64,000 nucleotides of DNA from assembly GCA_022969815.1 (NCBI GenBank), contig GCA_022969815.1_4535.1; one strand, given 5' to 3'. Shown piece after piece: positions 21,569-48,762 of this stretch. Positions within the stretch are counted from its first letter, which is position 1. Each line of letters opens with the position of its first letter. A program made the translations under genes and the position numbers. Source of the stretch: Escherichia coli. GTDB lineage: Bacteria; Pseudomonadota; Gammaproteobacteria; Enterobacterales; Enterobacteriaceae. Under the pieces are notes generated by a model. The model was not told the DNA's origin, searched no databases, and worked only from the letters and a program-made list of their open reading frames with translations.

Positions 21569-21647
21569 TGGAGGCGGGAATCGGATTCGAACCGATGATC
21601 TCCAGCATATGAAACTGGCGAGGACGACCAAACTCCTCTATCCCGCT
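21569..21647 (-). tRNA. tRNA-Met (anticodon CAU; Ile2 not excluded)
   Basis: T-arm ATCGG-TTCGAAT-CCGAT, anticodon loop UUCAUAU, encoded CCA; folded by eye. Confidence 0.55.
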
Positions 21648-21651
21648 ATTA

Positions 21652-21724
21652 GGTGTCCCGTGCTGGATTCGAACCAGCATCACAATAGTTGTGGATCTCT
21701 TATCCTGTAAGTCTAACGGGAAAC
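21652..21724 (-). tRNA. tRNA-like element, anticodon arm unresolved
   Basis: Canonical T-arm GCTGG-TTCGAAT-CCAGC and acceptor-like 3' end, but no canonical anticodon stem-loop found. Confidence 0.3.
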
Positions 21725-21798
21725 TGGTTGTTTCGACAAGAATCGAACTTGTATCTCACGATTATCAGTCGTGGGTTCTACCATTGAACTACGAAACA
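21725..21798 (-). tRNA. tRNA-Ile (anticodon GAU)
   Basis: Acceptor UGUUUCG/CGAAACA, D-arm GUUC-AAUGGUA-GAAC, anticodon loop CUGAUAA, T-arm, encoded CCA. Confidence 0.6.
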
Positions 21799-21821
21799 TT
21801 TAATTGGTAGGAATTGCAGGA

Positions 21822-22163
21822 TTACCAAGTAACATCATGCCCTGAATGGAAAGCGCAATGACAGTTCTTACAGAGTAAGACGCAATTCTCTATCTCTTTG
21901 TCTATTCTTGCAAGTGACCAGCCACGCATAGATCCGTAGTTCTTATCTTTTATTGCTGGGTCAAGATGGTGAATATCCAAAGATTCTTCATACTGATTAA
22001 ATCCGCAAGCGGCGCACTTACCTCCTAACTTATCACGAGCATATTTTTTCTTATGTTGTCCAAGTTCTGTCGTATACTTATTATGACAGGCTCCACAAAT
22101 AGATTTCTTATGTCCGTAGAATTTCGTAGGATCTTCTTCGCCACAATGACTGCATTTACACAT
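21822..22163 (-). CDS. HNH endonuclease
   Basis: 113 aa; Cys-rich MCKCSHCGEED...CGACHNKY...CKNCHCAFHSGH with zinc-finger/HNH spacing; embedded in tRNA cluster. Confidence 0.55.
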   Translation of the reverse strand: MCKCSHCGEEDPTKFYGHKKSICGACHNKYTTELGQHKKKYARDKLGGKCAACGFNQYEESLDIHHLDPAIKDKNYGSMRGWSLARIDKEIENCVLLCKNCHCAFHSGHDVTW

Positions 22164-22184
22164 ACAAAAAATCTCTTTACAAAT

Positions 22185-22260
22185 TGGTCAGCCTAAGAAG
22201 ACTTGAACTTCTAACCTCACCGCCCCAAACGGCGCACTCTTCCAATTGAGCTATAGGCTG
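22185..22260 (-). tRNA. tRNA-Pro (anticodon UGG)
   Basis: Acceptor CAGCCUA/UAGGCUG, anticodon stem CGCCG/CGGUG with loop UUUGGGG, T-loop UUCAAGU, encoded CCA. Confidence 0.6.
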
Positions 22261-22460
22261 TTAATAAAAAATCTCACGTCTTATACAAGCTAACCTTTTG
22301 CCTGATGCATGAAATTTAAATACATTCTAAAGGTACACCGTAAAAGATTGTCGGGGCGATACTTCAAAAACATACCGATCCGTAGATCGATAATCAGACA
22401 AACTTCGACGGCTCCTCGTTTTTAACTTCACACTTAAGGTAGTGACTCACCTTTGTTATA

Positions 22461-22536
22461 TGGCTGGTCTGTCTGGATTTGAACCAAACCTACGACAGTC
22501 AAAGTGTCGTGTGCTACCGGACTACAATACAAACCA
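22461..22536 (-). tRNA. tRNA-Gln (anticodon UUG)
   Basis: Starts with U1-A72 pair as in bacterial tRNA-Gln; anticodon stem CGACA/UGUCG, loop CUUUGAC; T-loop UUCAAAU; encoded CCA. Confidence 0.6.
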
Positions 22537-22626
22537 TTTAATGAAGGGCAACCAGAAGAGGTGTGAGAGAAGGAGAAAACCATGAGTAAAAGAGAAAGTT
22601 TTCTGGCAACCCTTTATTAAATAATT

Positions 22627-22700
22627 TGGAGCGTTCTACGAGTTTCGAACTCGTGCCGCCGACTTGGAAGGACGGAATGCTACCGCTACACCAAGAACGC
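22627..22700 (-). tRNA. tRNA-Gly (anticodon UCC)
   Basis: Acceptor GCGUUCU/AGAACGC, anticodon loop CUUCCAA, T-arm ACGAG-UUCGAAA-CUCGU, encoded CCA. Confidence 0.55.
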
Positions 22701-22929
22701 CCTACATCTTTACTATACTACATTTTACTATCAGTTGTCAATAGTTTTATTGGGCGGGACAGTGACGAGTATCCCATTGGGTGACTAACCCTACGTTCGG
22801 TTGTGATTAATCTCCTGGGTGTCGCTTGCAACACTGGAAAACTCTCACGTCGATGGGAGAATCCGCTTCTTCTTTACCCCATCCAACCCTACTCCGGTCA
22901 AGTTTCAGGTGACTCTTTTTGTGATCAAC

Positions 22930-23260
22930 ACAATACTAAGAACACTGTCTTTCGAGCAGACCTTGTGCACAGGATACGACGATCAATCACAGTGCTCTTA
23001 ATGTTGTGCCACAATAATAAGAACATTCAAACGATGACCACTTTTAGTGGAGAGATTTACAAAATGCTCTTAATGTTGTGTTGTGAATACTAACCTCGGA
23101 ACTCATTACCGCGCTTTGGCTCGACCTTATTACAGGTTAGTGAATGTCTTTCGTCCGATTACATTCAATAAATTTGCTTTCTTCACAACGATAAGAACAC
23201 TTAACAGAAGATAGGTCTGATTGCCTCGGATGATTTCTCAGTAGCCTAAATGTTCTTACC
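22930..23260. repeat. repeat-containing spacer within tRNA cluster (TAAGAACA motif x4, 15-bp direct repeat x2)
   Basis: TAAGAACA at 22937, 23018, 23192 and inverted at 23251; GCTCTTAATGTTGTG at 22994-23008 and 23066-23080. Confidence 0.45.
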
Positions 23261-23268
23261 TGTTATGT

Positions 23269-23344
23269 TGGTGCTCCAAGTAGGACTCGAACCTACGACC
23301 TCATGCTTACAAGGCAAGTGCTCTACCAACTGAGCTATTGAAGC
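23269..23344 (-). tRNA. tRNA-Thr (anticodon UGU)
   Basis: Acceptor GCUUCAA/UUGGAGC, D-arm AGCUCAGUUGGUAGAGC, anticodon loop CUUGUAA, T-arm GUAGG-UUCGAGU-CCUAC, encoded CCA. Confidence 0.6.
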
Positions 23345-23696
23345 GTATTGCGCCCCTTCAGCCATGCTTGATGTTGACCAGAACACAGTTAAACTGTGGG
23401 AGGAGGAACACCGCAGGGGGCTTCAGTTGGACGACTTACAGGGAGCGACCCTGTTTCTTTTCTGGGACTCGGCAGGATTCGATACCTGCAATTCCAGAAG
23501 CCTCTTGGCAACTGAGGGTTTACCTTAACCCTACAAGTCCATAATTCTTAAATACTTTGGAGCCTTACTGATAAACCGTTAGTTTGTAACATAGCGTATT
23601 TCCATTCTGGGGCACCGCCTGTGAATGTAATTCCAATACAAACTTTCTCAAGATCAAACCAATTATCAAATAACATTACAACCTCCAGTTTGAATT

Positions 23697-23780
23697 TGGT
23701 GTGAGATGATGGATTCGAACCACCGCGCCTTTCAGAAGGGATTTACAGTCCCCCGCAATCGACCACTCTGCCAATCTCAC
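23697..23780 (-). tRNA. tRNA-Tyr (anticodon GUA)
   Basis: Acceptor GUGAGAU/AUCUCAC, anticodon loop CUGUAAA, long variable arm, T-arm GGUGG-UUCGAAU-CCAUC, encoded CCA. Confidence 0.6.
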
Positions 23781-23904
23781 AAAATTGTTTTTAAAGTAGC
23801 CAGTATTCGCGGTACTGACTATGCGGTATCGGAGATGGTGAGAGCCATCTGCCGAAAGTTTACTCTGTTAAAGTAAGAAACAACAAGCTACATTAAAAAC
23901 AACT

Positions 23905-23990
23905 TGGCGGTAGATGTAGGACTCGAACCTACACGCCGTTTCCGACTACAGTTTAGCAAACTGTTGTGGCTACCATTTCACCAATCTACC
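23905..23990 (-). tRNA. tRNA-Ser (anticodon GCU)
   Basis: Acceptor GGUAGAU/AUCUACC, anticodon stem ACAGU/ACUGU with loop UUGCUAA, long variable arm, encoded CCA. Confidence 0.6.
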
Positions 23991-23996
23991 TAAATT

Positions 23997-24086
23997 TGGA
24001 GGAAGGTAATGGAGTCGAACCATCACCGTATCTCTACAATGGGCCAGGGTTCAAATCTGGTTGCGTACCACTACGCCCTACCTTCC
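23997..24086 (-). tRNA. tRNA-Ser (anticodon UGA; long variable arm, Leu not excluded)
   Basis: Acceptor GGAAGGU/ACCUUCC, anticodon loop UUUGAAC with one stem mismatch, long variable arm, T-loop UUCGACU, encoded CCA. Confidence 0.5.
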
Positions 24087-24321
24087 ATACATTTAATCTA
24101 ACATAAAACGATGTTGATTGTCAACACCTTTTAAAACATTTTATTATGAATGGTGACTCCACCAACCCCCGTTCTCCACGAACGGTACTCTTCGAGCAAT
24201 CTACCCTTGCAATCAAACGTTGTACACCGTTAGCTTACTCATGCATATTTGCCTCATTCTCTGCCAACCATGATCAGTGGTAGGGTTCAAATCACTTGAG
24301 CTAATTCATACTAAAATGTTC

Positions 24322-24396
24322 TGGTGTCTTTACAAGGAATCGAACCTTGACTAAGAGTTTAGAAGACTCCTGTGCTATCCATTACACCATAAAGAC
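24322..24396 (-). tRNA. tRNA-Arg (anticodon UCU)
   Basis: Acceptor GUCUUUA/UAAAGAC, anticodon stem GGAGU/ACUCU with loop CUUCUAA, T-loop UUCGAUU, encoded CCA. Confidence 0.6.
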
Positions 24397-24398
24397 GT

Positions 24399-24473
24399 TG
24401 GTGGCCCTGACTGGTTTCGATCCAGTTGCCTATCGGTTATGAGCCGACTGCTCTCCCATTGAGCTACAGGGCC
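24399..24473 (-). tRNA. tRNA-Met (anticodon CAU; elongator or Ile2-type)
   Basis: Acceptor GGCCCUG/CAGGGCC with G1-C72, D-arm AGCUCAAUGGGAGAGC, anticodon loop CUCAUAA, encoded CCA. Confidence 0.6.
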
Positions 24474-32518: not shown

Positions 32519-33247
32519 ATGATCGAGAACTTTTTTAAAGAGATTAAGGTAGATGTGGACTTCTATAAGAAAGCAGCTAAACATGTAATCGATTGGAATG
32601 CAAAAGCGCGTGGCGGAGAACAGCCGGAATTTGACCAGGCAATGTTTGTTTCCCAAATCGGGTTTGTTCGTGAAGAACTGAAAGAGTATGAAGAAGCCGC
32701 TAAAACTAATGATCACGTTGAACTCCTGGATGCAGCCGCCGATGTATTCGTTGTTTCCAGTTACCTGGTGTACATGTTCTTTGGTGAAGAAGCAACTCTG
32801 AAGTTCCTTGAGAATCAGGTTGGTACTGTCTTCACAGAAACAATCTACACCGATTTCGACAACATGGAAGCTACCTTTACTGATCCTGTTCAGATGGCAG
32901 TATTGAGTGCTGGTATTATGAACCTTGCGCGTGATACGCTGGTGCGTTCTGTCTATGCAGACAAAAAGATTATGAAAGAAGTTCTTGACAGTAATGATTC
33001 TAAGTACCCTACTAAGAAGCAACTGCTGGCTGTATGGAATACTTCCGATATTGATCTTGCAATTTCACAAGAATGCGCAGCGATTGAAGAGCGTAATGCC
33101 AATCGTCCTGAAGGTGCTTACACTGGCGTACATGCCACGTACAATGAAAAACAGAAAGTTTATGTGTTCTTTGATGATAAAGGTAAGATCATGAAACCTT
33201 CTACCTTTGTTAAACCTGATATTGCAAAAATCATTGCTAAGAAATAA
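32519..33247 (+). CDS. MazG-like nucleotide pyrophosphohydrolase, putative
   Basis: EELKEYEEAAKTNDHVELLDAAADV fits the E-x-x-E...E-x-x-D metal-binding pattern; weak. Confidence 0.3.
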   Translation: MIENFFKEIKVDVDFYKKAAKHVIDWNAKARGGEQPEFDQAMFVSQIGFVREELKEYEEAAKTNDHVELLDAAADVFVVSSYLVYMFFGEEATLKFLENQVGTVFTETIYTDFDNMEATFTDPVQMAVLSAGIMNLARDTLVRSVYADKKIMKEVLDSNDSKYPTKKQLLAVWNTSDIDLAISQECAAIEERNANRPEGAYTGVHATYNEKQKVYVFFDDKGKIMKPSTFVKPDIAKIIAKK

Positions 33248-37135: not shown

Positions 37136-37363
37136 ATGAGCATTACATTAACGGGTAATGAAATTTTTGAATTATTTGAAATGTTAGGGATGAGTTATTC
37201 TATTGACAAAGACCCTGATCTTCTAAATGTGGAGATCACCGTTTTAGAGAATGGTGAACTTCTTGATGATAACGGTAATGTTATGTACCGTGGTCGCGTT
37301 GCTTATTACACAGACTACCCTGAAGAAGGTGGAGTCGGAATCCAGGAGGAAAATTATGTCTAA
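37136..37363 (+). CDS. hypothetical protein
   Basis: AGGGGG RBS. Confidence 0.5.
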   Translation: MSITLTGNEIFELFEMLGMSYSIDKDPDLLNVEITVLENGELLDDNGNVMYRGRVAYYTDYPEEGGVGIQEENYV

Positions 37364-37754
37364 TGCATTTAATGATCAAGTTGACGGACACCATTACACA
37401 GATATGGTAATGCAACCTATAGAGTTGGCTTATCTTGTAGGTGGCACACCTTGTTTCTGCAAGCTTGCTAAATATTCTACTCGTGTCAAGGGTGATCGCA
37501 TGATCAACTTGGACAAAGCTATTCATTGCATCGCACTGGAAGCTACCATGATGGAGAACCATAGTTTCATGGTACAGGAAAACTACCCAGCAGCCACAAG
37601 TAAGGCCAAAACTGATCAAGCCATGTTGCTGATTGACTTTTTCACAAAAGATCCCTTAATCCGCGAAGCTTTGAAGTGTATGTATTGTTCTTACTACCAA
37701 GATGCAATGATAGCTATCAGAAAACTTAAGGAACAAATTAGTAATGGCGAATAA
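37356..37754 (+). CDS. hypothetical protein (DUF3310-like VDGHHY motif)
   Basis: AGGAGGA RBS; ATG at 37356 overlaps upstream stop. Confidence 0.4.
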   Translation: MSNAFNDQVDGHHYTDMVMQPIELAYLVGGTPCFCKLAKYSTRVKGDRMINLDKAIHCIALEATMMENHSFMVQENYPAATSKAKTDQAMLLIDFFTKDPLIREALKCMYCSYYQDAMIAIRKLKEQISNGE

Positions 37755-38534: not shown

Positions 38535-39152
38535 ATGAAGATAGTTTGTGATTGGGATCTGGTGGTTGCTCCACTGGATGTTGCTTGGCTGGAATGGTTG
38601 GTTAAAGTTAGCGGAGATTGTGTAGGCTTCTGCGGAGCTGTCAAAAATGTTGACTACGATCTTACTAAATACTTCCCAGGTTTCCGTGAGAAGTTTAACA
38701 TCGATCCTTACGGCTTTCTGGATAATTCCCATCTCTACGATACAATGGGATGTATCAAACCCATGGCTAACTTCTTAGAAGGTGTTGTGAAAGAGGGAGA
38801 TAATGCACTTATTGCAAGTGTGACTAAAGGTGGACACCTTAGCTCAAAACACAAACATGTTTTAAGAACTTTGCCAACCATCGATTTTGGTAAAGGTTCT
38901 GGTAATGGTTTCTTTGCCACAAAAGAAAAATACCTATTGCCTTGTGATATTGCCATAGATGACAGGGCAGAAAACCTGTTGTATTTTCCAGATCATGTTG
39001 TTAAGATTTACTACAATACGATGTATAAAGATTTGTATTTGGAAGAATTAAAAAAGAAACCAAATGTAGTTGTCACAGGTTTGTACAATCAAGCAGAAAC
39101 CTGTTGGCAAGTTTATTCAATGTTAAAAGAACGAGGAGAAATTAATGTCTAA
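38535..39152 (+). CDS. HAD-like 5'-nucleotidase, putative
   Basis: GAGGAGGG RBS; N-terminal IVCDWDLVV fits HAD motif I DxDxV; later DD motif; weak. Confidence 0.3.
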   Translation: MKIVCDWDLVVAPLDVAWLEWLVKVSGDCVGFCGAVKNVDYDLTKYFPGFREKFNIDPYGFLDNSHLYDTMGCIKPMANFLEGVVKEGDNALIASVTKGGHLSSKHKHVLRTLPTIDFGKGSGNGFFATKEKYLLPCDIAIDDRAENLLYFPDHVVKIYYNTMYKDLYLEELKKKPNVVVTGLYNQAETCWQVYSMLKERGEINV

Positions 39153-40140
39153 TATCAGTGCACAAGTCATCGCCCAGTCTATGAACGCAGAAGGGCAAGT
39201 GATTACAACTTTCGAACTGGAATACCCACGTATCATCCATTCTGAGTTGATGACGCACCGCTTATTCTCCCGCAACGCGGCTTCAAGCCGTGCTATTCCG
39301 GTGAAGACCCTGATTGAAATGGTTCGCAAAGAACCTGCTGCACCTGTTCGTTTTGGTCAACACCAACCTGGAATGCAGGATCAAGGCGTAGAATATGATG
39401 CTCTTATTGGGGCAGGTTACTCAGGTCGTGAGTGGTGGAATTTAGCTGCGCTTAGTGCAGCAAACTTTGCAGAACAAATGGCGGAAGCTGGTTACGCGAA
39501 GCAGGTTTGTAATCGCCTTCTTGAACCATTCCAGAGAATGAAGACGGTTCTGACAGCAACCGAGTATGAAAACTTCTGGTGGCTACGTGATGACGCTGAT
39601 GCTGATCCGACTATTGAAGCTTTAGCTAAAGTTATGTTTGAAGCTTATGAAGCCTCTACTCCAGAACTGCTGGCTCCAGGACAATGGCATACGCCTTACG
39701 TAGATCACGTCTACGAGAACATCGGTCTGGAAGGTGATGATGTTTTGGTATTCGCTGGGTATAGCACTACAGATGAAAATGGCAATACTGTCATGCTGTC
39801 GCTGGAAGAAGCACTTGCAATCTCTTCTTCTTGTTGCGCACAAGTGAGCTATCGTCGTCTGAATGCAACTAAAGACAAAGCTTTGGATATCTACGGACGT
39901 TTGCTTACTGGTCGTAAAGTCCACGCTTCTCCGTTTGAACATCAAGCTACACCTATGCAAGCAACCTTTGAACTTCTTGGTGAGAATGCGTCTGAAGATA
40001 TTCTTATTAACGTTCCGTGGTATGCAGCTTCTTGGGAAGTAGGTATTACTCACAGTGATCGTAACGAAAAACTGTGGTCTGGAAATTTCAAAGGATTTAT
40101 CCAGCACCGTCAGCTTTTAAATAATCATACTAAATGGTGA
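39145..40140 (+). CDS. thyX: flavin-dependent thymidylate synthase-like protein (ThyX family)
   Basis: THRLFSRNAASSR matches ThyX signature RHRx7S with first Arg replaced; C-terminal HASPFEHQ; 331 aa, longer than typical ThyX. Confidence 0.55.
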   Translation: MSNISAQVIAQSMNAEGQVITTFELEYPRIIHSELMTHRLFSRNAASSRAIPVKTLIEMVRKEPAAPVRFGQHQPGMQDQGVEYDALIGAGYSGREWWNLAALSAANFAEQMAEAGYAKQVCNRLLEPFQRMKTVLTATEYENFWWLRDDADADPTIEALAKVMFEAYEASTPELLAPGQWHTPYVDHVYENIGLEGDDVLVFAGYSTTDENGNTVMLSLEEALAISSSCCAQVSYRRLNATKDKALDIYGRLLTGRKVHASPFEHQATPMQATFELLGENASEDILINVPWYAASWEVGITHSDRNEKLWSGNFKGFIQHRQLLNNHTKW

Positions 40141-40917: not shown

Positions 40918-43164
40918 GTGATTCGATACGTTACTAAATCAAATGGCAAGACAGAAGAGTTTAATCCTGAAAAACTGCGTAAATGGTCTGAATTTGCAGC
41001 AGGGAAACTGAACTGGTCGGAAATTGAATTAGAAGCTGTGAAACGTTGTTACGATGGGGTGTCTACTCGTGATTTACATAAAGCTATGATCGCCGCATGT
41101 ATTGACAAAAAGACCCAAGCGTATAGCGACATGGCAGGTCGATTGCTTCTCGGTATGATTTACAAACAGGCTCACGGGGGATACCACAGTATCCCTTCCC
41201 TGTACACCTTCTACCAGGATATGGTGAAGCGTGGACATTGGGCTAAGATGGATTATACCGAAGAAGAAATCAAAGAGATTGGTAAGATTGTCAAACACAA
41301 CAAGAATCTAACCTACGGTTATTCCGTTCTTCGTCAGATGGCAGATAAATACCTGGTTCGTGATGCTGTGAATGATGTTGTTCATGAGTCACCGCAATTC
41401 CTGTTTATTGGTGTGGCAATGCGTGTTATGGAGATCCAGCCTAAAGATCGTCGTATTGACGATATCAAAAAGCTGTACACATATGTAAGTGATCTTCAGA
41501 TTAACTTACCATCTCCATATCTGACAACGTTACGTACTCCGATCAAGGGTAGCGCGTCTTGTTGTTTATTCCGTGCAGACGATACAGCAGAGTCTTTGGC
41601 TATTGCAAACTATCTGGCACACGAATACACGTTAAATAATGCAGGGATTGGTGTTAACCTCCAGACCCGTGCAACGGGACAGGGTGTTAAGAACAACCGT
41701 ATCATTCATGGTGGTCTTCTCCCTTACCTGAAGTGGATGGAAGATAGTGTAGGAGCTTCTAAACAAGCGAGTCGTGGTGGTAGTGCAACGGTTACGTTCA
41801 CAATCTTGGAGCCAGATTTTGAAGATCTGATTCGACTGAAGAACCCAACCACTCCGATCGATAAGCGTGTTGATAAGCTGGATTATTCTGTTGTTGTAAA
41901 CCGCTCCTTCCTTCGCCGTGCTGCTAAAGGTGAAGAGTGGATGCTTGTGAGTTGTGACGAAGCACCGGAACTTTACGAAGCACTGTACAAAAGTGAAGAA
42001 GAGTTCGATGCTGTCTACGATAAAGTTAGTCGCCGTCGCATCAAAAAGAAAATTGTTAAGGCTCGTGACCTGTTGACTGAAATCATTGTTCAACGTGCAG
42101 AGACTGGACGTATTTATATGTTCTTCGCTGACAACGTAAACAATCACACTCCTTTCCTGGATACCGTGTATCAGTCGAACTTATGTCAGGAGATCTTTTT
42201 ACCTACTAAAGCGTTCCATAAAATGACGGATCTCTTTACTGGTGAAAACACAGAAGATCAAGAATTGGCTTTATGCTTCTTGTCCTCTATCGTTGCTGGG
42301 CGAGTTACGCCGGAGCAATACGAAGATGTTGCGTACTACACTGTATTGACGATTGATAACGTTATTGAGACGATGGAATACCCATTCAAACATAACGAGA
42401 TCACAGCTAAGGCTCGCCGCTCTATTGGCGTAGGTATTACAAACCTTGCACATTATCTGGCAAGCAACTTTGTAACCTATTCTGATCCTTATGCGAAGAA
42501 GCTGATGCATGAATTAGCAGAACGTCATTACTTCTGGTTGGCACAAGCCTCTCTGCGCTTGGCGAAAGAGAAAGGTAATGCCGAGTGGATGGATAAAACT
42601 AAGTGGCCTCAAGGTTGGCTCCCTATTGACACCTACGCTAAAGCAGTAGATACTATTGGGGACTTTGAACTGAAGCTGGATTGGGAAGGCTTACGTGCTG
42701 GTATCATTGAACAAGGCGGTATCCGTAACAGTGTGCTTGCAGCAGTGGCCCCGAACGAATCAAGTAGCTTGGTGAGTAACACTACCAACTCACTCTACCC
42801 TGTACGTGACACGATCATGTACAAACAGAGTCAGAAAGGTAACGTACTGTTTATCGTACCGGATTACGAAAAACTGAAAATGTTCTATCAGTCGGCGTGG
42901 GATACCCCGTCTAAAGATATTGCCGAGATGTACGGACTCTTCACTAAGTTTACGGATCAGGGTATCTCCTGTGATGCTTGGTTGGATTATTCCAAAATGG
43001 AAGGTGGACGTTTATCAGTGAAAGCCGAGATGCAGTTTATCTTGACATTTGCAAAACTTGGTGGTAAATCTCTTTACTACCTGAACAGCCGAACCAAATC
43101 AGCGGAATCTATGGCCCAAGAAGACAACCTGAAAGAGTCTGGATGTGAGGGTTGCAGCATGTGA
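40918..43164 (+). CDS. nrdA: ribonucleoside-diphosphate reductase alpha subunit (class Ia)
   Basis: GTG start with GGGAGGA RBS; ATP-cone-like N-terminus, active-site motif SNLCQEIFLP, C-terminal CEGCSM redox cysteines; 748 aa. Confidence 0.85.
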   Translation: MIRYVTKSNGKTEEFNPEKLRKWSEFAAGKLNWSEIELEAVKRCYDGVSTRDLHKAMIAACIDKKTQAYSDMAGRLLLGMIYKQAHGGYHSIPSLYTFYQDMVKRGHWAKMDYTEEEIKEIGKIVKHNKNLTYGYSVLRQMADKYLVRDAVNDVVHESPQFLFIGVAMRVMEIQPKDRRIDDIKKLYTYVSDLQINLPSPYLTTLRTPIKGSASCCLFRADDTAESLAIANYLAHEYTLNNAGIGVNLQTRATGQGVKNNRIIHGGLLPYLKWMEDSVGASKQASRGGSATVTFTILEPDFEDLIRLKNPTTPIDKRVDKLDYSVVVNRSFLRRAAKGEEWMLVSCDEAPELYEALYKSEEEFDAVYDKVSRRRIKKKIVKARDLLTEIIVQRAETGRIYMFFADNVNNHTPFLDTVYQSNLCQEIFLPTKAFHKMTDLFTGENTEDQELALCFLSSIVAGRVTPEQYEDVAYYTVLTIDNVIETMEYPFKHNEITAKARRSIGVGITNLAHYLASNFVTYSDPYAKKLMHELAERHYFWLAQASLRLAKEKGNAEWMDKTKWPQGWLPIDTYAKAVDTIGDFELKLDWEGLRAGIIEQGGIRNSVLAAVAPNESSSLVSNTTNSLYPVRDTIMYKQSQKGNVLFIVPDYEKLKMFYQSAWDTPSKDIAEMYGLFTKFTDQGISCDAWLDYSKMEGGRLSVKAEMQFILTFAKLGGKSLYYLNSRTKSAESMAQEDNLKESGCEGCSM

Positions 43165-45292: not shown

Positions 45293-45490
45293 ATGAAAGA
45301 CCAAATGATTAATGGACCTCGTGTAACAGTCAGTCCTAAAACTTTTGCATCTCTTCTGGACGACACTGGTGAGGTTTATACTTACACAAGAGATTCACTG
45401 CCTCTGCCTGAAAGTGCACAGGGTTCACGTTCGCTTTTTTATAAAGGTGTTCTTTTTACGGAAGCAAAAGAAGACAAGGAGACTAAATGA
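45293..45490 (+). CDS. hypothetical protein
   Basis: AAGGAG RBS. Confidence 0.5.
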   Translation: MKDQMINGPRVTVSPKTFASLLDDTGEVYTYTRDSLPLPESAQGSRSLFYKGVLFTEAKEDKETK

Positions 45491-46479
45491 GATACCTGGT
45501 AACAGGTGGTCTTGGTTTCATTGGGAGCGCCGTAGTGCGCTCTCTTTGTCAAGATCCTAATAACGAAGTTTTTGTTATTGATAAAATGGGCTACGCAGCC
45601 GATATTGAAAATGTAGGGGATATCACTCACGCCAAACTAAGTATGACAGATTTGGCAAACGAAGCACAGGTCAAAAGTTTAGTGGTAGAATGCAACCCTG
45701 ATTTCATCATTCATTTAGCGGCAGAGAGTCATGTGGACAACTCTATCAAGAATCCACGAGCTTTCATCGACTCCAATATCATCGGTACATATAATCTGTT
45801 AGAAGCTGCAAGGCTTCTTCCTAAGAACAAGCTGAAGATGTTTGTACACGTCTCTACAGACGAAGTGTACGGTGATATGGAGGACTCTGGTGCTCCATTT
45901 ACCGAAGAGACAGCTTATGCTCCTTCAAGCCCATACAGCGCGTCTAAGGCGGCATCTGATCACCTTGTCAAAGCTTGGCACCGTACTTACGATTTGCCTG
46001 TAGTGATAACCAACTGTTCCAATAACTTTGGGCCTTACCAACACCCTGAAAAATTGATTCCGAAAGTGATCACGAACATCTTGACAAGCAAAGAAATTCC
46101 AGTGTACGGTAAAGGCGATCAAGTAAGAGATTGGCTTTTTGTTGAGGACCATGCGCGAGCTATTCTTCAAGTAGCTTCTGGCGGCGAACCTGGACAAACT
46201 TACAACGTAGGCACACGTAATCCTAAAACCAATATGGAGATCATCTATATGATTTGTGATTACATGGATGCCGTACACCCGCAAAGTGGAACCTACCCGT
46301 CTTCGAGTTTAATAACTTTTGTTGAAGATCGTAAAGGACATGACTTGCATTATGAAATCAACCCTGCTAAGATTGAATCTGAACTGGGTTGGAGTGCAAA
46401 CTCCACATTTGAACAAGACCTTTACTCTACGATAGAGTGGTATTTAAACAACCCTCAATGGTGGAGAGAAAAGATTTAA
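45487..46479 (+). CDS. rmlB: dTDP-glucose 4,6-dehydratase
   Basis: N-terminal [10 protein letters not shown] Rossmann motif, YSASK catalytic motif; 330 aa. Confidence 0.8.
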
Positions 46480-46487
46480 GGAGGGTT

Positions 46488-47366
46488 ATGAAAGGTATTA
46501 TTTTGGCGGGAGGAAGTGGAACCCGCCTACACCCTGTAACACGCAGTGTGAGCAAGCAATTGCTCCCTGTGTATGACAAACCTATGATTTATTATCCTTT
46601 ATCAGTCTTGATGTTGGCAGATATTAAGGATATCTTAATCATCACAACCCCAGGCGATCAGGAAGATTTTGAGTATCTTCTTGGAGATGGATCTATGTTT
46701 GGGATAAAAATCACTTACGCAATGCAGTCTGAACCACGAGGTCTTGCAGATGCTTTCATCATCGGTAAAGATTTTATTGAGGAAGATTCCGTTGCCCTTA
46801 TTTTAGGGGATAACTTGTTCTTCGGACAAAGTTTCGGAAAACTTCTTATCCAAGCCAGCGAAATGGTGGATGTTTGGGGTGGAGCTTGTATCTTCGGGTA
46901 TCTGGTGAAAGATCCTGAACGATTCGGTGTTGTTGAGTTCGGAAGTAATCGCCAAGCTATCTCTATTGAAGAGAAACCGGAACATCCTAAATCAGACTAT
47001 GCCGTCACGGGTTTGTATTTCTATGACAACTCTGTTGTTCAACGTGCATTGGAAGTAACTCCTTCTGATCGTGGAGAACTGGAGATCACAGATATCAATC
47101 GCAGCTACCTCGAAGACAGAAAGTTACAAGTTGAAGTTCTTGGAAGAGGATTCACTTGGCTGGATACAGGGACACACGCCAGTCTAATGGAAGCAGGTCA
47201 ATTCGTGCAGACTATTGAGAACTGCCAAGGATTGAAGATTGCGTGCCTGGAAGAGATTGCTTTCAAAAAAGGGTGGATTTCTTTAGAGACTTTGGTGTAT
47301 CATGGCAACTCATTGAAGAAAACAGAGTACGGGCAATATCTGTTAAAATTAGCGGAGGGTAAATGA
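46488..47366 (+). CDS. rmlA: glucose-1-phosphate thymidylyltransferase
   Basis: N-terminal [16 protein letters not shown] signature; AAGGAGGG RBS before ATG at 46488; 292 aa. Confidence 0.85.
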
Positions 47367-47923
47367 AAATAAAAGAATTAAGTATTCCTGGTCTGGTTGT
47401 CTTTAAACCTCAAGTTTACAAAGATGATCGTGGTTCCTTCACGGAGACGTTTAACGAGAAGATTTACGAAGAGGTTATTGGCAAACAAACGTTTGTTCAG
47501 GATAACCATTCATTCTCTACTTTAGGTGTTCTTCGCGGAATGCACTTTCAAGTAAATAACCCGCAAGGTAAGCTTGTACGTTGCACACGAGGTGAAGTTT
47601 TTGACGTGGCTGTAGATCTTCGTGAAGGTAGTCCAACCTTCGGACAATGGGAAGGTGTGATTCTTAGTGGGTGTAACAATAAACAGTTGTGGATTCCACC
47701 TGGCTTTGCACATGGTTTTGTTGTAACCTCTTATGAAGCCAACTTTGAATACAAGTGCACCAACTACTACGATCCGGCATCTGAACGTAGTTTGTTGTGG
47801 AACGATCCTACTGTGAATATTGATTGGGGTTTTGATATGATTTTCAATGATGAGAATTTTGTACCTATCATTTCGGAAAAGGATGCACAAGCTAAAACAC
47901 TGAAGGAGCTTATGGAATCATGA
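47363..47923 (+). CDS. rmlC: dTDP-4-dehydrorhamnose 3,5-epimerase
   Basis: 186 aa cupin-like with GMHFQ and IPPGFAHGF motifs. Confidence 0.75.
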
Positions 47924-48762
47924 AAACATATTTAGTATTGGGTGGTAATGGTCAATTAGGTCAGGCACTGCGTAAAGTGGTGCCGGAGAATGTGACTTTG
48001 GTGTATCCAGAAAAGCGTGTAGATATCACCAGTTTTGAAGCTGTAAGAAAAGCGATCATGGACACCCCAAATATTAACGGTGTTATCAACTGTGCGGCAT
48101 ACACTGCGGTGGACAAAGCAGAGACAGATGTTGATGCAGCTATGGCTGTAAATTTACACGGGGCAGCTAATATTGCTGCCTTCTGTAAGGCTTGGGATAT
48201 TGACATGGTGCATATTTCTACTGACTATGTGTTCAACAGCGATAAACCGTTGTTCCATCAGGATGAACCCAACCCTATCAATGTTTACGGGTTATCTAAA
48301 AGTTTGGGTGAAGCTGCTGTTCGTGGTATCTACCATAAAGCTTTTATTATCCGCACGGCTTCTGTGTATAGCGAGTTTGGTAACAACTTCCTGAAGACTA
48401 TGGTATCTCGTTACAACGATGGTCAAAGAGACTTCTCGGTAGTTGCAGATCAAACATCTCGACCAACTTATGCCCCAGATTTGGCTAAGATGATTTTCCA
48501 AGTGTTGGAAACAGGATATAACACCCGTACTTTGCATTACGCTGGGAACATCACTGTTTCGTGGCACCAGTTCGCAAAAATGATATTGACACGTATGCCT
48601 GAATCTGTTATTATACACCCGACCTCTGCTGCAACCTATAATTCGGCAGCGATGCGACCAGCAAAGTCTATACTAATTACGTCTGGTTGGAACGAACCTT
48701 CAAGCGTCAGACAAGGTATTGAAGAATCTTTAGCAGTATTACTTAATAAGGAGAGAGCATGA
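47920..48762 (+). CDS. rmlD: dTDP-4-dehydrorhamnose reductase
   Basis: N-terminal LVLGGNGQLGQAL Rossmann motif; 280 aa; last gene of the four-gene rml block. Confidence 0.75.
   Translation: MKTYLVLGGNGQLGQALRKVVPENVTLVYPEKRVDITSFEAVRKAIMDTPNINGVINCAAYTAVDKAETDVDAAMAVNLHGAANIAAFCKAWDIDMVHISTDYVFNSDKPLFHQDEPNPINVYGLSKSLGEAAVRGIYHKAFIIRTASVYSEFGNNFLKTMVSRYNDGQRDFSVVADQTSRPTYAPDLAKMIFQVLETGYNTRTLHYAGNITVSWHQFAKMILTRMPESVIIHPTSAATYNSAAMRPAKSILITSGWNEPSSVRQGIEESLAVLLNKERA

Follow-up and report, generated by a model that had tools for sequence, protein, structure and literature searches.

Non-collinear segment order and loss of R78 and Y91 in a phage subfamily of ThyX-like proteins

Much work has been done on ThyX, both as a drug target and as a model of methylene transfer mediated by flavin. 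The canonical enzymes of about 220 aa, represented by T. maritima TM0449 (PDB 1kq4 and 1o26), M. tuberculosis (2af6) and H. pylori (3ah5), place the helices that carry H53 before the core. Solved ThyX chains measure 216-270 aa, tags included, and the family models cover 191 (Pfam Thy1) and 211 (TIGR02170) positions. In the active site, the anionic hydroquinone FADH- is stabilised by R78, which is directed at its N1/C2=O; H53 makes stacking contacts with the isoalloxazine or with the pterin of folate, both S88 and S30 form hydrogen bonds to C4=O of the flavin, and Y91 bonds H53 and may be a general acid, its mutation slowing flavin oxidation about 1000-fold (PMC11940539). The chlorovirus PBCV-1 ThyX, A674R (PDB 2cfa and 4fzb), is short (217 aa) and collinear with cellular ThyX, unlike the phage family treated here. 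PolB (PDB 4p5a), a UMP/dUMP C5-methylase of polyoxin biosynthesis encoded in an antibiotic gene cluster, is likewise collinear with ThyX.

Proteins of the same family as ours are called thymidylate synthases in several phages. The rV5 gp106 orthologue was so named in its genome paper (PMC3606486), and the Pakpunavirus FDTS lies in a module with ribonucleotide reductase, dCMP deaminase and thymidylate synthase (PMC12846349). Along with ICP1 ORF193, a match in N4 gp29/gp30 and the PHROG_85 group, they share one architecture and one THR motif with the protein described here; identities are 39-77% over 98-100% of the query, and there is no essential difference between them and it. We found no biochemical or genetic assay of any member of this subfamily in a search of the openly available literature.

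The gene lies in a window of 64,000 nucleotides, the whole stretch of DNA that was analysed. The window DNA shows 99.5% identity with the Escherichia phages phiWec188 and phiWec190, where the gene is labelled 'hypothetical', and 98.3% with 'Pseudomonas' phage PsgM04F, where its counterpart, 99.4% identical as a protein, is labelled 'thymidylate synthase'. Among classified phages, the phAPEC8- and phi92-like myoviruses come closest, with 67-77% amino-acid identity. Within the window the gene is ordinary, one further copy of a common phage gene. It begins as follows:

38535..39152, + strand: upstream ORF of 205 aa, its last 8 nt shared with the start of thyX
39135..39139, + strand: Shine-Dalgarno sequence GGAGA, the ATG beginning 5 nt downstream (direct sequence reading)
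39145..40140, + strand: complete ORF (331 aa and a stop codon) for the rearranged ThyX-family protein

The upstream ORF may be translationally coupled to thyX. It matches phrog_420 (unknown function) and, at 22.9 bits and so under the 24.8 cutoff, NT5C, the 5'(3')-deoxyribonucleotidase; it would be odd to find a dNMP phosphatase coupled with a thymidylate synthase.

Residues 37-49 (39253..39291, + strand) read T-H-R-LFSRNAA-S-S-R, the family version of the RHR-x7-S-x-R signature; in place of the canonical R-H-R-x7-S(-x-R-Y), the protein has T-H-R-x7-S-S-R-A. The motif had been pointed out in an earlier note on this DNA, and it is not a chance resemblance: in an alignment of 87 diverse members, whose identity to the query ranges from 37 to 88%, every sequence has H38, S47, R49 and A50, 82 have T37 and only 68 have R39. 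The same note put the protein at about 100 aa over the usual ThyX length, which the sizes of the solved chains and of the Pfam and TIGRFAM models bear out. Both traits are true of the gene, yet they do not single it out. The protein matches PHROG_85 (phage 'thymidylate synthase') over residues 3-331 (E 2.4e-104, 351.6 bits), and the length and the THR motif are common to this whole subfamily, which numbers thousands.

The 331 residues can be divided into five stretches, one of which contains an insertion, all on the + strand:

39145..39198, + strand: residues 1-18, N-terminal beta-strand (strand at 5-13) into the core sheet, from the secondary structure of the model
39199..39675, + strand: residues 19-177, ThyX core corresponding to about 61-200 of T. 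maritima ThyX, with R124, N143 and R148
39328..39423, + strand: residues 62-93, within the core, approximate site of a family-specific insertion of about 20 aa, from reading of the sequences
39676..39798, + strand: residues 178-218, insert joining the core to the relocated helices
39799..39942, + strand: residues 219-266, relocated segment homologous to the N-terminal helices 19-59 of T. maritima ThyX
39943..40137, + strand: residues 267-331, family-specific C-terminal extension

Most of the excess length thus lies at residues 178-331, in the beta-hairpin insert, the relocated helices and the tail, and the placement of extra material around residues 70-200 in the earlier note was largely wrong. 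Only about 20 aa of excess fall in the core, and their location at about 62-93, read from the sequences and not from an alignment, is approximate. This insertion has the motif P-x-P-x-x-[WF]-G-x-x-Q-x-G-M-Q, with G76 and M77 invariant. The insert at 178-218 combines an invariant W-H182-x-P184-Y with a variable beta-hairpin (strands 187-192, 201-209 and 215-218). The relocated segment holds S227 (S22), S235 (S30) and VHASPFEH with H260 (H53). The tail carries a conserved G-x-T-H-x-D...W-S-G-N-x-x-G-[WF]-I-Q-x-R-Q, in which R322 is invariant, and residues 267-331 have no detectable counterpart in canonical ThyX. Compared with the canonical enzymes, then, the phage protein has 331 aa rather than about 220: the GMQ-motif insert contributes about 20 aa, the beta-hairpin insert about 40 and the conserved tail about 65.

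Pfam Thy1 (PF02511) recognises the protein at 37.3 bits (gathering cutoff 24.8), with residues 19-173 aligned to profile positions 57-190 of 191. The thyX equivalog TIGR02170 gives 30.2 bits in native order, short of its cutoff of 87.9. No Thymidylat_synt (ThyA) domain was found in the 331 aa, and the C-terminal 119 or 154 residues alone matched nothing in Pfam even at E<=10. A single-protein phmmer search of PDB sequences returned no ThyX at E<=10, so a family profile was needed; the NusB matches in that search (E ~1.4) were spurious. The protein conforms to the ThyX three-dimensional fold, and the PDB holds no solved structure of any PHROG_85 subfamily member. In BFVD, a structure search recovered only phage proteins of the same family, with distant ThyX-like models at TM ~0.3.

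The order of the segments is where the family departs most visibly from canonical ThyX. Searched against PDB sequences with HMMER, the family profile matches T. maritima ThyX in three out-of-order pieces. Profile positions 216-261 (...iSasccAqvSYr...vHaSPfeH) fall on chain positions 31-74, native 19-62, which include HETPFEH with His53; positions 26-55 fall on chain positions 73-102, the strand and RHR...S88...R90; and positions 132-177 fall on chain positions 167-212, including NxxxLR174...AQxEI. Helices that precede the RHR strand in all solved ThyX structures thus follow the core here, and the canonical order, with the HxxPFEH helices ahead of the RHR strand, is not found.

We un-permuted the sequence in silico by putting residues 213-266 ahead of residues 19-177. 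The rearranged sequence scored 55-56 bits on Pfam Thy1 in a single stretch (profile 16-190), compared with 36.0 bits for the same residues in native order and 34.2 bits for the core alone. On TIGR02170 the score rose from 26-30 to 48.5-49.3 bits, still below 87.9. Collinearity and the higher scores returned only when residues 213-266 preceded residue 19. Similarly, an un-permuted profile of 34 diverse members matched T. maritima ThyX at 5.7e-11; the native-order family profile had matched it at 3.6e-6, in non-collinear pieces. One stretch of the un-permuted profile (12-84 against T. maritima 32-102) crosses the artificial junction, and single stretches were also obtained for 6j61 (17-205 against 29-209) and PBCV-1 2cfa (19-200 against 27-202). 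By these comparisons of sequence and profile, the non-collinear order holds across the family.

Either a true circular permutation, through duplication followed by truncation, or a transposition of the segment could lie behind the rearrangement. We looked for internal copies with hhalign: the tail 267-331 as a decayed second copy of the strand/THR/FSRN region and the beta-hairpin as a copy of the N-terminal strand both gave E 0.1-0.4 with a probability below 1%, and a pairing of GITH...WSGN with MTHR.FSRN was suggestive but not significant. An origin by duplication and truncation thus stays speculative. The search of the openly available literature yielded no description of a ThyX rearrangement, and the non-collinear order and the loss of R78 and Y91 both appear to be undescribed there.

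Active-site residues were mapped through the profile alignment to T. maritima ThyX rather than by superposed coordinates, with conservation counted in the 87-sequence alignment. Besides the two serines and the histidine of the relocated segment (S22, S30 and H53, now S227, S235 and H260, each in 87/87), these positions are retained: H79 as H38, S88 as S47, R90 as R49, R147 as R124, N169 as N143 and R174 as R148, all in 87/87, N85 as N44 in 85/87 and S83 as S42 in 78/87. R80 corresponds to R39, which is variable (R in 68/87). The dUMP and catalytic residues S88, R90, R147 and R174 and the flavin and folate contacts H53, S30 and N169 are therefore all present. Other positions are replaced: R78, the stabiliser of FADH-, by T37 (T in 82/87), Y91, the acid or H53 partner, by A50 (A in 87/87), R74 by S33 (Ala or Ser in the family), E86 by A45 (Ala or Ser) and, by alignment, R165 by T139 and H178 by D152. 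We take R165 and H178 of T. maritima ThyX to be FAD contacts and R174 to be the arginine that contacts uracil. By these counts the nucleotide site is strictly conserved, as is part of the flavin site, while R78 and Y91 are systematically absent.

The family is very large. A tblastn search found homologues in 1,036 phage records, 986 of them covering at least 80% of the query, among rV5-like, phi92-like, ICP1, PAK_P3- and KPP10-like, N4-like, phiCbK-like and Flavobacterium phages. Scanned exhaustively with HMMER, 1.84 billion cluster representatives (50%-identity clusters) yielded 4,936 matching clusters at E<=1e-3, a number that falls to 1,534 at E<=1e-30; most are of 290-350 aa. The strict motif is present in 231 of 270 retrieved homologues, with T at its first position in 227 of the 231. 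Judging from the phage BLAST results and the contig contexts, the subfamily would seem to be essentially phage-borne. In N4, Achromobacter phages, ZC03 and Poludnitsa, the match found by tblastn extends over two annotated features or ends close to residue 270, which suggests that the C-terminal tail may there be a separate ORF, highly divergent or mis-annotated. Two divergent members, P0188 (L005 2407-3462) and P0151 (L006 6001-7026), have N or G for the R of the THR motif, and their neighbourhoods contain only small unannotated phage ORFs. Their Pfam Thy1 match is on record as 'faint' or none, so a sizeable part of the family is probably unannotated in public data.

Some members of about 520-680 aa contain inteins, with an Intein_splicing domain and an HNH or LAGLIDADG endonuclease. 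Intein-bearing sequences are P0123, P0131, P0140, P0152, P0156, P0177, P0183, P0203, P0211, P0213, P0218, P0223, P0233, P0235, P0244, P0248 and P0257; Pfam confirmation was run on P0123, P0140, P0152, P0211 and P0233 only. There are five or more insertion sites (after H32, R39/40, S47, ~151/152 and H260 in the numbering of the window protein), all inside catalytic motifs; the gene at 39145-40140 itself has no intein. Inteins typically home into essential catalytic sites, and their position here may be read as an independent sign of the functional importance of the family.

It seems probable to us that the gene encodes a functional flavin-dependent dTMP synthase, belonging to a phage subfamily in which the segment order is rearranged and the flavin site partly rewired, and we infer dTMP to be its product. 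Such a ThyX/FDTS-type enzyme would convert dUMP to dTMP for phage DNA replication, with methylene-tetrahydrofolate as the carbon donor and reduced flavin as both carrier and reductant. The two or three N-terminal helices bearing S22, S30 and HxxPFEH with His53 have moved to residues 219-266, after the core; a new beta-hairpin ties them to it, a new conserved C-terminal tail comes last, and the relocated segment would reach the active site as in the canonical tetramer. The role of R78 in stabilising anionic FADH- may have passed to family-specific basic residues, of which R29 (84/87), R/K43 (84/87), K119 (87/87), R237 (84/87) and R322 (87/87) are conserved and may be candidate substitutes, though these are guesses. 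Against a dTMP synthase speak the family-wide absence of R78 and Y91, the variability of R80, the replacement of R165 and H178, the failure to identify a dCMP deaminase or dUTPase in the phage, and a TIGR02170 score of 30 bits (49 un-permuted) against the 87.9 required.

Other genes of the window include these:

21569-24473, - strand: 11 tRNA genes (Met x2, Ile, Pro, Gln, Gly, Thr, Tyr, Ser x2, Arg)
32519-33247, + strand: MazG/PRA-PH-like nucleotide pyrophosphohydrolase, 242 aa (Pfam PRA-PH 26.4 bits; phrog_671)
45487-46479, + strand: rmlB, strong Pfam match
46437-47366, + strand: rmlA, strong Pfam match
47363-47923, + strand: rmlC, strong Pfam match
47920-48762, + strand: rmlD, strong Pfam match

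Downstream of the thyX-like gene, after two small ORFs, come nrdA (40918-43164) and then nrdB; upstream are a ligase, exonucleases and the MazG-like pyrophosphohydrolase. The phage yielded no recognisable dCMP deaminase or dUTPase as a source of dUMP, and the MazG/PRA-PH-like protein could supply it as a dUTPase/dCTPase-type enzyme. The near-identical and fully annotated PsgM04F has a single thymidylate synthase, the counterpart of this gene, and its annotation lists no thyA, DHFR, dCMP deaminase, 5-hmdU kinase or aGPT-Pplase. A DUF3310 nucleotide-kinase domain considered for the ORF at 37353-37751 had no such match in Pfam (tried with the longer 37251-37751 ORF) or in PHROGs (37353-37751). 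The sign of the GC skew changes at about 26000, and all 11 tRNA genes are on the minus-strand side.

The earlier note had left it open whether the protein was a genuine thymidylate synthase or a ThyX fold put to another use, and the first of these is the one we favour. A repurposed fold would make a different C5-substituted deoxyuridylate, for example 5-hydroxymethyl-dUMP from a water-trapped methylene, and its product would possibly feed the sugar-nucleotide and glycosyltransferase genes of the phage. ThyX passes through an exocyclic methylene intermediate (PMC8989533), and a change in C5 chemistry is conceivable in principle, as R78 and the proposed general acid Y91 are replaced family-wide. 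The window also contains rmlB-rmlA-rmlC-rmlD (45487-48762, + strand), a complete dTDP-L-rhamnose pathway, and PsgM04F (L002 13530-16670) has four glycosyltransferase genes immediately next to those for primase/helicase and DNA polymerase I. However, the same substitutions occur in about 1,000 very different phages (N4-, ICP1-, PAK_P3- and phiCbK-like), known 5-hmdU pathways run on ThyA-family hydroxymethylases, and PsgM04F has no annotated 5-hmdU DNA kinase or aGPT-Pplase. The BASEL paper credits phi92-like phages with a 'putative dTDP glycosylation machinery', yet reports that they and Vequintavirinae are exceptionally sensitive to type I-III restriction-modification systems; this sensitivity of close relatives with the same enzyme argues against a protective thymine modification. 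We therefore regard a different C5 product as unlikely. In its fuller form, in which a rewired site (without R78 and Y91, with invariant K119, H182 and R322) would release a compound such as 5-hydroxymethyl-dUMP to be decorated through the phage's own dTDP-rhamnose and glycosyltransferase genes, the proposal is very doubtful; were it true, a hypermodified pyrimidine would for the first time be reached by way of a ThyX-family enzyme.

A ThyX-like methylase with a substrate other than dUMP, be it UMP, as for PolB in polyoxin biosynthesis, or dCMP, is just as hard to credit as that fuller form. Canonical dUMP-specific ThyX structures outscore PolB in structure matches to the protein, and the match of PolB to the un-permuted profile is weaker (E 6.5e-6, as against 5.7e-11 for T. 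maritima ThyX). R148, the equivalent of R174, is invariant, and an arginine is unexpected opposite the amino group of cytosine. The setting is a lytic-phage DNA-precursor module adjoining ribonucleotide reductase, with no nucleoside-antibiotic genes present. Slighter still is the chance of a relic, catalytically dead or regulatory, that would bind nucleotide or flavin and make no thymidylate: it would account for the score under the equivalog cutoff, the missing R78 and Y91 and the variable R80, but members with no more than 37-50% identity keep 16 invariant and about 35 nearly invariant columns, concentrated on ThyX active-site positions, inteins have homed repeatedly into these motifs, and the gene is kept in more than 1,000 phage genomes.

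Returning to the probable dTMP synthase, the family has consequences both for annotation and for the study of ThyX. Many members fall short of the Pfam and TIGRFAM models or only just pass them, and the genes most closely related to this one are labelled 'hypothetical'; a model built in the un-permuted order would improve phage annotation. Current ThyX mechanisms lean on R78, Y91 and H53. Here is a phage lineage, one that includes ICP1, N4, rV5 and Pakpunavirus therapy candidates, which keeps the fold and the dUMP site, lacks R78 and Y91, and brings H53 from elsewhere in the chain. If its members are active, they would offer a case of permuted segments in an oligomeric enzyme with active sites shared between subunits, and a natural experiment on which residues are truly needed for flavin-dependent thymidylate synthesis.
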